From assembly GCA_045653565.1 (NCBI GenBank), contig JAZOMA010000012.1:2553-66552 (forward strand): a DNA stretch of 64,000 nt, given 5' to 3'. Below the pieces are notes generated by a model that saw only the letters and a list, made by a program, of their open reading frames with translations, made no database searches and had not been told where the DNA came from. Below, piece after piece: positions 6,571 to 51,773 of the stretch (the first letter of the stretch is position 1; every line of letters starts with the position of its first letter). The stretch comes from Alistipes sp. (lineage in GTDB: Bacteria > Bacteroidota > Bacteroidia > Bacteroidales > Rikenellaceae). The translations under genes were made by a program, and so were the position numbers.

Positions 6571-7929
6571 TTAGAAGCTATATTTTGCCAGTACATTTAT
6601 GCGGTTGGCGTGAGCCTTTGCTCCATCCACATTTTTGCGACTTGCGTATAGGTACTCGGCACCGAGAACGAAGCGTTTGGTCAAATTCCAGAACACATTT
6701 CCGAATATATATTGTCCCTGTTTATACATATCCTCGCTGTAGAATCCATTCTTCTTGCACACTCGAGCCGTCGAGTAACCTCCCGAAACAAACAGGTTTG
6801 GAAGAATGTTTACCTGAGCAGCTACCTGCCACGCATACATCGGAGTCGCCTGCACTCGAGTAGCATCGTCGGGACGAGGAGTGAAGTCGAGCCCAGAGCC
6901 CATCAGGTCGTTGATGTAACGAGTGATGCCTTGTCCGTAGATACCATTCATAAACAACTCTAAATATTTGGTAATGTGAATGTTGCCACTGAGTTGAATA
7001 CCCCAACCAAAAAGATCGTCCTCGCTCGAACGCGCTTTGTTGTAGAGGTACATATCGCGAAATACGGCGGATGCGCGGAGGTGGCTGTCGCGATTCTTAC
7101 CCCACGAATATTGAAAGTAGATCGGGAAGTCGGGAACGCGCTGCGGAATGGCCATCAATGTCTCGCCATAGGTGCCCGATACGCTCGGCATCTCGGCTGC
7201 CACACCGGCCTTGAGGTGATTATCGAGGAACGAATATTCGTAGCGAATCATCGTTGCAAAGCGGAAATTGTAGGCATTAGGGCCTTGGAAATCGATTGTC
7301 GTAGGGGCTGCAGTAAGGTCGCAGAAGGTGGACACGTCACGACCAACGGTCAAACCGAGCATCGATACATATCCCGAACGGATACGTGGAATGTAGCTAC
7401 CTGCCGTGCCTCCTCTAAAGTCGAAGTCCATAAATACGTGAACCTGACCGAGTTTCTTGGTATTGGCAATACCTCGAATGAATAGGCGTGAGGTGCTTGC
7501 ATCGAGTCGCATCTCCTGCTCGTTGGCTGGCGAGTACGTCATCGGTATGTCGTATGGCACAACGTCTATATTGTTTATGGTACGGTCGAACGAATAGGCT
7601 GCGCGTAACGCAATCTCGCCACCAATCGAAAATGAGAACACGTTGTTCTTGTCTGCGAAAATAGCGGATGGCATAGCAGCCTGCTGGAAACCGTCGCGAG
7701 TTGCATTTTTGTGATCGTTGATGGCAGCCTTGACGGCGGCATTTTTCATTGTAATCGATTGCTGAGCGCACTCTTGCGTAGGGCATTTGAGTGTGTCGGT
7801 TTCGCTTACCGAGATGATGTAGACGGTTGGCTCGGCATTGCCGTGATAGAATCGCTCAATGCGATGCTTTTGCGCCGTGGCGGATATTGTAGCCGCCAAC
7901 GCTCCAATAAATAGTAAAACTTTTTTCAT
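6571..7929 (-). CDS. Outer membrane porin, DcaP-like
   Basis: Signal peptide, DASTSRL, PTTIDFQGPN, amphipathic strands, C-terminal KYSF. Confidence 0.8.
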   Translation of the reverse strand: MKKVLLFIGALAATISATAQKHRIERFYHGNAEPTVYIISVSETDTLKCPTQECAQQSITMKNAAVKAAINDHKNATRDGFQQAAMPSAIFADKNNVFSFSIGGEIALRAAYSFDRTINNIDVVPYDIPMTYSPANEQEMRLDASTSRLFIRGIANTKKLGQVHVFMDFDFRGGTAGSYIPRIRSGYVSMLGLTVGRDVSTFCDLTAAPTTIDFQGPNAYNFRFATMIRYEYSFLDNHLKAGVAAEMPSVSGTYGETLMAIPQRVPDFPIYFQYSWGKNRDSHLRASAVFRDMYLYNKARSSEDDLFGWGIQLSGNIHITKYLELFMNGIYGQGITRYINDLMGSGLDFTPRPDDATRVQATPMYAWQVAAQVNILPNLFVSGGYSTARVCKKNGFYSEDMYKQGQYIFGNVFWNLTKRFVLGAEYLYASRKNVDGAKAHANRINVLAKYSF

Positions 7930-43509: not shown

Positions 43510-43989
43510 TTATTTACCCATCAATTTGTCGAAGAATGAGCCACCGCCCGAAGCAGCAGGTACTAACGGCTTTTTCTTGCCTGTGCTGTGAATCTTCGAT
43601 ACCTCGCGCAGATAGTCGTCGCCTGGAGAACGGAAGTTAATATACTTTGCAGGATAGCCTGTTACAGTGATAGACTCGATAGAGCCATTCGCCGAGTACT
43701 TAATCTGATGCTCGAGTGCAACCAATACATCGGCATTGCCATTTGCGATGAGAGCCTCGCGAATGGCCGAATTGATAACGTTCTCCGGGCCTGCGCTAAC
43801 AACGGTCTGGCTTGGAATATAGAAGAATGAAATCTTGTTTGGCGAAACGTCGAGGTCTGCAAACACTGCTGTCACAGGGTCTAAAACGTTTATTTTGTTG
43901 TGAGTTGCAGTGTTGGTTAGTTTTGTTGGAACCGAGCAACTAACAAACATAGCCGAAGCCAAAACCGAAAGGATTAAAAACTTTTTCAT
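43510..43989 (-). CDS. Hypothetical lipoprotein
   Basis: Lipobox MFVSC; NADVLV...VTGYPA motif. Confidence 0.8.
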   Translation of the reverse strand: MKKFLILSVLASAMFVSCSVPTKLTNTATHNKINVLDPVTAVFADLDVSPNKISFFYIPSQTVVSAGPENVINSAIREALIANGNADVLVALEHQIKYSANGSIESITVTGYPAKYINFRSPGDDYLREVSKIHSTGKKKPLVPAASGGGSFFDKLMGK

Positions 43990-44008
43990 AATAACTTAAG
44001 TTTTTGGG

Positions 44009-44101
44009 TGCGTACCAGCCTCCAATACGCTGTAAATAAATGGAGAGTGCGAGGCTGTTGCCTTTCCTTTTGAGTTTCGAAAAGTTGGGCACAACACTCT
44101 C
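44009..44101 (-). ncRNA. Candidate 5' leader RNA motif, short copy
   Basis: GAGAGTGTT...AACAGCCTCGCACTCTC...GCGTATTGGAGGCTGGTACGCA, homologous to 50368-50591. Promoter TAAATTTG at 44138-44131. Confidence 0.55.
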
Positions 44102-44231
44102 TGCTGAACTGTATTTGTTGTTATGTATCACAAATTTATGAAATAATTTTTCAATTATCGCATATTTCCAAGAAAATTATACCTTCTATATAAAAATATT
44201 TGATTTTTGGGAGATTATATACAATACATTT

Positions 44232-44491: not shown

Positions 44492-44577
44492 TACTCGGAG
44501 CGGGAATCGAACCCGCACGGCCATTACTGGCCACAGGATTTTAAGTCCGGCGTGTCTACCTATTCCACCATCCGAGC
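44492..44577 (-). tRNA. tRNA-Leu(TAA)
   Basis: GCTCGGATGGTGGAATAGG...GACTTAAAATC, long variable arm, GGTTCGATTCCCGCTCCGAGTA. Confidence 0.96.
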
Positions 44578-50034: not shown

Positions 50035-50176
50035 CTTCCATACAAAAAATCAAATGGTTCAGGGTACAAATATAGACAAAAATTCATAATTCAAAATGCA
50101 AAATGCAAAATTGTGGGGTAAAAATTATAAATTTTTAGTGGCTATTAGCCATTAGCCATTTTCAGTGGCGCAATTT

Positions 50177-50275
50177 TTAGAGGTTGTTAAAGGATATTAA
50201 AGGTTGTTAGAGGTTATTAGAGGTTATTAGAGAGCGCCACTCTAACTCCCCTTAACCACTCTTAACTACCGCTAA
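50177..50275. repeat. Nonamer arrays (TTAGAGGTT-like) with an inverted counterpart
   Basis: TTAGAGGTTGTTAAAGGATATTAAAGGTTGTTAGAGGTTATTAGAGG then CTCTAACTCCCCTTAACCACTCTTAAC. Related arrays at 2753-2783 and 13189-13222. Confidence 0.75.
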
Positions 50276-50335
50276 TAACATCTATTTTCTTGGCGCACTT
50301 TTTGCACTTTCGGAAATAAGTTGCTATATTTGTGG

Positions 50336-50591
50336 TGCAGTCCTCGGATTGCAGACATATTATTAGTGAAAGTGTTTCGCAAACCTTGACGATAAAATTT
50401 GGCGATTTTACAAAGAGCAAGGATAAGCAACAGCACTCTACACCGCATTTGGTATATCATTTTCTACATATACCATTCGGTGTGAGGTATTGTTTATTTG
50501 CTCTTGGGCCACGCCAAATGCCTATCGTCAGATAAACGAACAGCCTCACACTTTCTTTTTATTTTAACCGCACATTCGGGGCAGGTGGGCA
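50336..50591 (+). ncRNA. Candidate 5' leader RNA, long copy with a ~145-nt rod and an alternative pairing
   Basis: Promoter TATATTTG at 50325-50332; six nested stems 50387-50530; closing GAAAGTGT/ACACTTTC followed by a T-run. Confidence 0.65.
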
Positions 50592-50610: not shown

Positions 50611-51696
50611 ATGAAGAAGCTATTAACAATCATTATTCTTGCAAGTCTATTAACGTCGTGTAACTCGGAACGGAAATATGAGAAATTAGCCAACGAGTAT
50701 CTGCAAAAGAATAAAATTCCTGCCGAGAGGGTTATTGCATCGTTACCAAATAAGGAGTATCATGCCTTGTACTTTATTGAGTATGCAGAACTTGGTCGTA
50801 TGACCGAGCTTGGTGATAAGTGTCATAACATTATTAAGTATGACCTCAAAACAAGAGAACGCACTACCATATTAAGCGCAAAGAATCTGCCTCAGGAGTT
50901 AGACAAAGGTGCAGGTTTTATCACGATTGACCATTTCGGCGTTGATAACGATTTTATATACATTACCTCCTATATCGATGTAGGATATTATGATATCGCC
51001 TTGTATAGTATGAGTTATAACCTTTGGTTATATGTAGATAGTGCCTATGTTGATGAGATATCTATGTCTAATTGGGAACTAACTGTAAGGGGTACCGATA
51101 TTGACTTTCCGGCAGCCGAGTGCTTTGGCAATCTTATTTGGACGAAAAAGTATAATATATCGACAGATTGTATAGAGAATACTCTGTATGATACAAATCT
51201 TTACAAATACTATGATGGTGAAAGACTTATAGAGAAAGAGGATATATACTATATTCAACGGATGATACAAGAGAATTGTGTTGAATATCTTAGGAAAATA
51301 TCTGTTTCAAGTGTTGAGTTACTACAAGAATTTGAGGAGAATCAGGCTGCTTGTGACGCTAAATATAGAGGAAAGGCTCTATTCTTCTATATAGATAATA
51401 TACACGAAATAGGCAATGTCCAAGATGATTATGTATACAAATACGAATATGCTGATTACAGATATTATGTTAAAGGCTTAGGTAATTTCCCTTATTCCAT
51501 ATATTGTTTCTCAAACGATCCTGCCGTCGTTTCAATGATAAAAGATGATGCTTGTGTCTTTTATGGAGAATATGTAAGTTCAACAAGCCAATATGAGATG
51601 CACATGGTTAATTGCCGGACTCTCGACAAAGAGATTATGGACTATGTTTTCAACTCTCTTTATCTTCCATACATAGCAAGTTTGAAAGGTAACTAA
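50611..51696 (+). CDS. AT-rich lipoprotein with a C-terminal tRNA_anti-like OB-fold
   Basis: Lipobox LLTSC; VSSVELLQEFEENQAACDAKYRGK motif; visibly lower GC than its neighbours. Confidence 0.78.
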   Translation: MKKLLTIIILASLLTSCNSERKYEKLANEYLQKNKIPAERVIASLPNKEYHALYFIEYAELGRMTELGDKCHNIIKYDLKTRERTTILSAKNLPQELDKGAGFITIDHFGVDNDFIYITSYIDVGYYDIALYSMSYNLWLYVDSAYVDEISMSNWELTVRGTDIDFPAAECFGNLIWTKKYNISTDCIENTLYDTNLYKYYDGERLIEKEDIYYIQRMIQENCVEYLRKISVSSVELLQEFEENQAACDAKYRGKALFFYIDNIHEIGNVQDDYVYKYEYADYRYYVKGLGNFPYSIYCFSNDPAVVSMIKDDACVFYGEYVSSTSQYEMHMVNCRTLDKEIMDYVFNSLYLPYIASLKGN

Positions 51697-51743: not shown

Positions 51744-51773
51744 GCACCCTCCGCAATTGCGGAGGGTGTTTTT
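51744..51773. terminator. Terminator between convergent genes
   Basis: CACCCTCCGC-AATT-GCGGAGGGTG followed by T5. Confidence 0.82.

Follow-up and report, generated by a model that had tools for sequence, protein, structure and literature searches.

A Multicopy RNA Leader Family of Bacteroidota With Two Covarying Folds, Probably a Cis-Acting Transcription Attenuator of Cargo Genes

Introduction

In transcription attenuators of the trp type, four segments of the leader pair as 1:2, 2:3, or 3:4. Attenuators of the plasmids pT181 and pIP501 are controlled by antisense RNAs, with the kissing of loops coming first, and the c4 antisense RNA system of phage P1 belongs to the same class of logic as the CI RNA of phage P4. 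Transporter insertion sequences of the IS1595 family carry passenger genes, and Bacteroidota acquire many surface-protein genes via mobile elements. How the expression of such genes is kept safe once they have arrived is, to our knowledge, little understood.

Two further systems are described in published accounts. In phage P4, the mutually complementary leader blocks of the CI RNA system (seqA-seqC) are tied to premature termination (PMC4825925), and the FopS of Bacteroides are paralogous sRNAs of ∼70 nt with a single-stranded seed and a terminator (PMC11697453).

The window, a 64,000-nt stretch of an Alistipes genome, contains a leader (50336-50591, + strand) that shares features with each of these systems. 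Like trp-type attenuators, it has mutually exclusive pairings (1:2 with 3:4 versus 2:3), a U tract, and a position between promoter and gene. Unlike them, it has no universal leader peptide, has an extra 1:4 closure, complementary hairpin loops, and two predicted pseudoknots, and occurs in many copies before unrelated cargo. A conserved leader ORF over segment 1 was not found, as judged from the single position before AAAGTG, where the codon is GTG, ATG, or TTG in 76 of 119 members, TAG in 18, and another in 25. Three mutually complementary leader blocks are shared with the P4 CI and P1 c4 systems; the leader matches neither of them in sequence or in Rfam, and it differs in having envelope genes as cargo rather than replication or antirepressor genes, and in covariation within a copy. 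No phage replication or antirepressor gene was found among 76 + 10 downstream ORFs, most of which lack a Pfam match. With pT181 and pIP501, the leader would share a kinetic choice of the terminator fold and loop kissing as the first step, but both kissing partners are on one strand. Convergent antisense promoters, sought within and 3' of the leader, are not conserved (at most 3 of 119 members in any 10-nt bin). The leader is like FopS in being multicopy, in having a sigma-A promoter, and in belonging to Bacteroidota. Relative to IS1595 transporter elements, the leader is an internal sequence for cargo expression, and it occurs in single chromosomal cassettes and close to integrases and relaxases as well.

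Scans with Rfam 15 of the window, 20 Alistipes-like loci, and 17 distant loci gave no match at any leader. FopS (RF04319) was rejected as an identity: Rfam finds it elsewhere in locus L297, which serves as a positive control, and at none of the leaders. That match, at L297 5043-5113 in a genome of another Bacteroidales family, exceeds the Rfam cut-off. The DUF805b motif (RF02914) has five weak matches in the window genome, none at a leader and none over the cut-off, and the first alignment rows of GUCCY-hairpin, Flavo-1, Bacteroides-2, and c4-a1b1 (PMC2864571) are unlike the leader. When the family was considered as a riboswitch, its invariant bases were mostly explained by double pairing, and its cargo is unrelated apart from export signals. 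We found no published description of the family; the motif sets of PMC5737381 and PMC8040213 may list pieces of it. The family is uncatalogued in Rfam 15 and probably consists of attenuator-type leaders.

Results

The leader was first described in an initial annotation as a rod of nested stems with three segments, A, B, and C, that exchange partners. All 12 stem halves are where it placed them, some of them in stems with G-U pairs, and the positions given for A (50423-50443), B (50480-50497), C (50532-50551), and TTTCTTTTT (from 50552) are correct. The complementarity of the swapping segments likewise stands, but their number does not, as four segments were found. Features that the annotation lacked are membership in an RNA family, hairpin H (50507-50522), and two further pairings, one between segment 1 and A and one between C and D (50578-50584). 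The fold of 50336-50591 has an energy of −81.6 kcal/mol (z of −5.5; none of 200 shuffles folded as well). The isolated B:C hairpin, directly 5' of the U run, has an energy of −32.2 kcal/mol.

All parts of the leader are on the + strand. The promoter (50301-50332) consists of TTTG (50301-50304), a 20-nt spacer, and TATATTTG (50325-50332), and we take it to be of the Bacteroidota sigma-A type from the TTTG/TAnnTTTG consensus. A TAnnTTTG box is upstream of the leader in 116 of 119 members. A 5' hairpin predicted by folding is followed by the conserved single-stranded GCAGACATA at 50351-50359 (together 50336-50359), for which no RNA partner was found. Segment 1 (GAAAGTGT plus X, 50368-50388) has three alternative pairings: 1:2 with A, 1:4 with C, and a small hairpin of its own, P0 (∼50366-50380). 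The 5' strands of P2 (50388-50394), P3 (50397-50404), and P4 (50413-50419) covary strongly and form the loop of the 1:2 hairpin (50388-50419). Segment 2, or A (50418-50443), is complementary to segment 1 and to B, and leads into an apical hairpin (50439-50484, from folding) whose length varies among members. Segment 3, or B (50480-50497), has A or C as a partner. The 3' strands of P4, P3, and P2 lie at 50498-50529 together with H (50507-50509/50520-50522), which covaries. The loop of H displays the 3' strand of P3, which leads to the prediction of a pseudoknot with P2, H, and P3 in one stack. Segment 4, or C (50531-50555), pairs with B to form the predicted terminator, or with segment 1 and D. 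The U tract (50552-50565) has at least seven T of nine in 112 of 119 members. Finally, the 3' hairpin (50569-50590), 20 nt 5' of the AUG, has a loop, D, that pairs with 50541-50547 in a predicted second pseudoknot; this pairing covaries. The C:D pairing has one mismatch in the window copy, and D overlaps B:C, its target being the middle of C. Across the members surveyed, the start codon is a median of 55 nt 3' of the C anchor, and the + strand folds better than its opposite in 111 of 119.

These parts are compatible with two folds. State 1 is a rod of 1:4, P2, P3, P4, and A:B (2:3). State 2, the terminator fold, has two hairpins, 1:2 and B:C (3:4), followed by the U tract.

The window leader precedes a 361-aa predicted lipoprotein (50611-51696, + strand, GC of 0.35) that has no Pfam family and no clear relative in the Atlas, and an intrinsic-terminator-like hairpin (51744-51769, + strand) closes the cassette. 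In the window genome, one or two AT-rich genes, mostly with a GC of 0.33-0.40, follow each copy, and the cassettes sit among housekeeping genes with a GC of ∼0.5. At the window site, three of five close relatives are empty and two are filled; the filled ones have different cargo, and one of them has a leader of a different class. REP-like opposed short repeats are located just 5' of the promoter (50175-50285), and relatives bear other REP-like repeats there, even where the site is empty. Cargo genes are unrelated in sequence (DUF805, DUF4988, TM2, LRR, HsdR_N, type IX secretion tails, and beta-barrels) and mostly belong to no family. With a simple heuristic, 54 of 82 first cargo genes have a signal-peptide-like start, relative to 33% of 1365 ORFs and 25% of 71 low-GC ORFs in the background. 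The idea of an RNA switch over accessory envelope genes, put forward in the initial annotation for lipoproteins, is supported by alternative helices that covary across 121 members and by the exported appearance of these cargo genes.

A profile search of the 1.74-Mb window genome identified 15 copies (E below 1e-19), two of which are cut by contig ends, and a covariance model added three divergent ones. By BLAST, the leader is in 39 of 60 genomes of the same genus and one of 40 others; among named records, the motif is chiefly in Alistipes and Rikenellaceae MAGs. Searches with a model of the 3' half reach further. Because these large searches scored 24 candidates per genome, the counts are lower bounds: at least 44 of 150 other Bacteroidales genomes (E up to 1e-4), at least 16 of 150 genomes across the phylum (E up to 0.01, the weakest matches being probably due to chance), and at least two of 21 genomes of one distant family. 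We examined 35 distant matches, and in 34 of these tested the half outside of the search model. That half pairs with its own partner at −22.8 kcal/mol versus −15.2 kcal/mol with those of others, its own partner being the best in 16 of 34 and in the top tenth in 26 of 34. A U tract is present behind the stem in 28 of the 34. Distant members show the 5' motif only weakly. P3 falls into a few sequence classes that are common to genomes and orders, and P2 and P4 vary freely. A full copy is present in six of 74 viral loci with the pattern. As a query, the window copy had no match in the plasmid collection and one in the phage collection; a distant copy matched one Chryseobacterium plasmid.

Covariation was examined in 124 full-length members, 121 of which were retained at less than 92% identity (mean identity of 61%). 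The collecting pattern for many members demanded the 5' motif, so conservation of that motif is inflated. In an alignment of 60 members, 86.9% of cells are paired in state 1, with 395 double changes versus 132 in shuffles, and 90.5% in state 2, with 35 versus 11.8; none of 500 shuffles reached either value, and slid control structures drop to about half paired. The consensus fold of the alignment is B:C. In partner-swap tests, in which kinship among sequences inflates P, we compared own with nearest-neighbor partners in the 121 members. The respective counts are 44 versus 22 for B5:C3, 70 versus 38 for B3:C5, 71 versus 41 for X:A, 82 versus 34 for C:D, 59 versus 32 for A5:B3, and 41 versus 43 for A3:B5. 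Exchanging partners with the five nearest relatives weakened P2, P4, P3, C:D, H, B:C, and X:A and had no such effect on 11 control pairs, on 1:4, or on A3:B5. Mapped on a tree, independent swaps per tested pair number 12-18 for P2, 11 for P4, at least eight for H, and 5-8 for C:D, as compared with 1-3 for B:C and X:A and one for A:B.

At individual positions, AG in B is found solely with CT in C (7 of 7), and GA in B never is (0 of 19). In distant families, GTG has changed to GCG in both segment 1 and B jointly with a change of CAC to CGC in C. The pairing of 1:4 is near-invariant in Alistipes-like members and no covariation was seen there. Sequence variation gives firm support to the rod and to both pseudoknots, moderate support to the terminator fold, and, by alignment columns, weak support to the A:B helix. 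Of the two partners initially proposed for B, C is supported by covariation, in few events, and A contributes the least supported helix.

The initial annotation also called for co-transcriptional folding. In folds of successive prefixes, 1:2 is favored until B emerges (probability of ∼0.99 in the window copy), and the same is true of 106 of 113 members. At equilibrium, the window rod has an energy of −75.0 kcal/mol versus −59.4 kcal/mol for the terminator fold, and across 113 members the completed rod is more stable by a median of 11.8 kcal/mol. The best fold includes 1:4 in 103 of 113 members and B:C in two. Since the rod wins at equilibrium, termination would have to be kinetic, with the choice made during transcription.

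Discussion

The leader belongs to an RNA family that occurs across Bacteroidota and has two alternative folds, both of which covary. It probably functions in cis as a transcription attenuator that meters the cargo gene. Segment 1 would pair first with A. If 1:2 lasts, B is left free to pair with C, and transcription is predicted to stop near 50559. If A is instead drawn onto B, the rod would zip and polymerase would read through. The apical hairpin may begin this switch together with the H loop (50510-50519), which would kiss 50397-50404; the ∼30 nt before C emerges appear to leave room for this step. Thereafter, 1:4 and C:D could lock the message at its 5' end. The simplest input would be a kinetic race tuned by the speed or pausing of polymerase, and such a race could give newly acquired envelope genes a low default expression.

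The position of the U tract is relevant to this choice. At least six T of eight follow 3:4 in 108 of 113 members and 1:4 in 93 of 113. Because it is compatible with a stop after 1:4 too, the main rival is a double gate, in which 3:4 and 1:4 both stop transcription and read-through requires that segment 1 be held while A pairs with B. The holder would be hairpin P0 or a factor at GCAGACATA-GAAAGTG, the latter making the leader a factor-dependent cis attenuator. Short forms that lack A and B (L147, L300, and L365/L415/L440) still have 1:4 and C:D, and often also have the U tract; hairpin P0 shows covariation at a single pair and forms in prefix folds, and GCAGACATA is without an RNA partner. On the other hand, 1:4 is long-range and closes with three A-U pairs, no regulator gene is common to the 15 leader sites in the window genome, and the 5' motif, weak in distant members, owes part of its conservation to how members were collected. 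We consider the double gate unlikely.

RNA data bear on termination in a paralogous leader. Two runs of one study each have a stand-alone contig of this leader, 275 and 174 nt long. The two contigs share one end point, 4 nt into the U tract, and neither has a loose 3' end. The longer contig begins 5' of the predicted start site, a third run of the study has no stand-alone contig, and in a metatranscriptome, contigs continue past the leader. The stand-alone contigs are a weak hint of premature termination.

The attenuator could be elaborated into a phylum-wide portable RNA gate over envelope genes of recent acquisition, in which a kissing pseudoknot times the choice and P3 classes let terminated leaders cross-regulate copies of the same class, tuning cassettes together. 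We regard this extension as rather speculative and improbable as a whole.

Control in trans of the P4 CI or P1 c4 kind has terminated or processed leader RNAs acting on the nascent leaders of other copies, with P3 classes as addresses and a second leader, at 44 kb in the window, as one target. That leader (43990-44138, − strand) is a short, internally deleted member (profile E of 0.003; 0.14 in a second search), with a promoter box (44138-44131), segment 1 as GAGAGTG (44101-44095), C (44057-44043), and D (44022-44016). It precedes a 159-aa predicted lipoprotein (43510-43989, − strand), and a tRNA gene (44492-44577) is ∼350 nt 5' of it. As the initial annotation noted, this leader has a C-like block at 44043-44059 and no B; the block is on the minus strand, and A and P2-P4 are absent as well. 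The matched changes GAGAGTG/CACTCTC, CAGCCTC/GAGGCTG, and GCGTA/TACGC are kept.

Consistent with trans control, the window genome has at least 15 copies, P3 classes are common to genomes and orders, stand-alone leader contigs occur in one RNA study, and window B pairs with the C at 44 kb at −19.5 kcal/mol, versus −22.6 kcal/mol with its own C. However, this pairing is not specific to the window copy: B from any of the 13 full-length copies would pair with the 44-kb leader about equally (−16.5 to −20.1 kcal/mol). The target is partly buried, with CACTCTC paired in its own hairpin (probability of 0.83-0.98) and the middle of the block fairly open (0.12-0.34), and the U run is degraded. At the matching site of genome G043, a full-length leader precedes a homologous gene (49% identical). 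The suggestion that the window leader acts on the one at 44 kb is not supported. More generally, all tested pairings covary within a copy, B is hidden in the best fold of 111 of 113 members, no antisense promoter is conserved, no C4-type Rfam match was found, and the slow change of P3 may merely reflect pseudoknot contacts. No convincing unlinked partner in trans emerged when complements of 13-mers were searched for. We thus find trans control quite doubtful. The 44-kb leader is best read, from its sequence, as an internally deleted family member that pairs C with its own partners, and it is probably constitutive.

Homologues of the 159-aa lipoprotein carry full, short, or no such leaders; the two closest (69% and 62%) have none. 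BLAST with the 44-kb leader identified no real short homologue in 100 relatives. A metagenome pattern designed for short forms was discarded as it matched mostly by chance, with one real family (three records) among 96 distinct matches.

The rod and pseudoknots could instead set the stability or translation of the message, through RNase III cutting, an exonuclease block, or ribosome loading, or the ∼220-nt RNA could itself be the product. Such a post-transcriptional role fits a stable fold that is the rod, a C:D pairing that becomes possible only once the U tract has been passed and that short forms retain, and the spacing of the start codon from C. It leaves the conserved B:C, 1:2, and U tract unexplained, and we judge it very unlikely. 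A gene-capturing mobile DNA repeat (a MITE or an attC- or REP-like hairpin) without any role as RNA is extremely improbable, for while cassettes are present or absent at the same site with other cargo and leaders occur within IS1595 elements, the polarity behind a promoter is fixed (116 of 119), the + strand is the better folder, pseudoknots and a U tract are present, and 12 cassettes of the window genome lack terminal repeats with target duplication.

If the leader is the attenuator that we favor, the recurrence of one RNA architecture across the phylum, in chromosomal cassettes, integrative elements, and IS1595 transposons, would explain in general how acquired genes are expressed safely, and the leader would be a compact, tunable part for Bacteroidota genetics. 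Dozens of variants, together with short forms that lack the terminator arm, are natural material for tests.

The mobile settings vary. In 4 of 10 distant regions, the leader is inside an IS1595 element with terminal repeats, three of them with an 8-bp target duplication, and other distant leaders have integrases, a resolvase, or a relaxase in their neighborhood. Around the window cassette and 11 others in the same genome, terminal repeats with target duplication were not found. Apparently intact IS1595-family elements, which have passengers, terminal repeats, and target duplications, span L331 2929-8688, L332 3769-8503, L333 4049-7386, and L334 3894-6670, and a fragment of an IS1595 transposase lies between cargo genes behind a leader in G000 C41 (∼6670-7260). 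Two full leaders are in tandem with no gene between them in L038 456-1124 (G020:C64). Arrays of heptamer tandem repeats in opposite orientation flank several cassettes (G000 C7, C5, and C35; L342 and L343), and one gene that neighbors them presumably encodes a protein resembling a four-helix bundle. Finally, G000 has, at C38 ∼13200 and C44 ∼98100, the two copies of a repeat that is at least 80 nt long and has no relation to the leader family.
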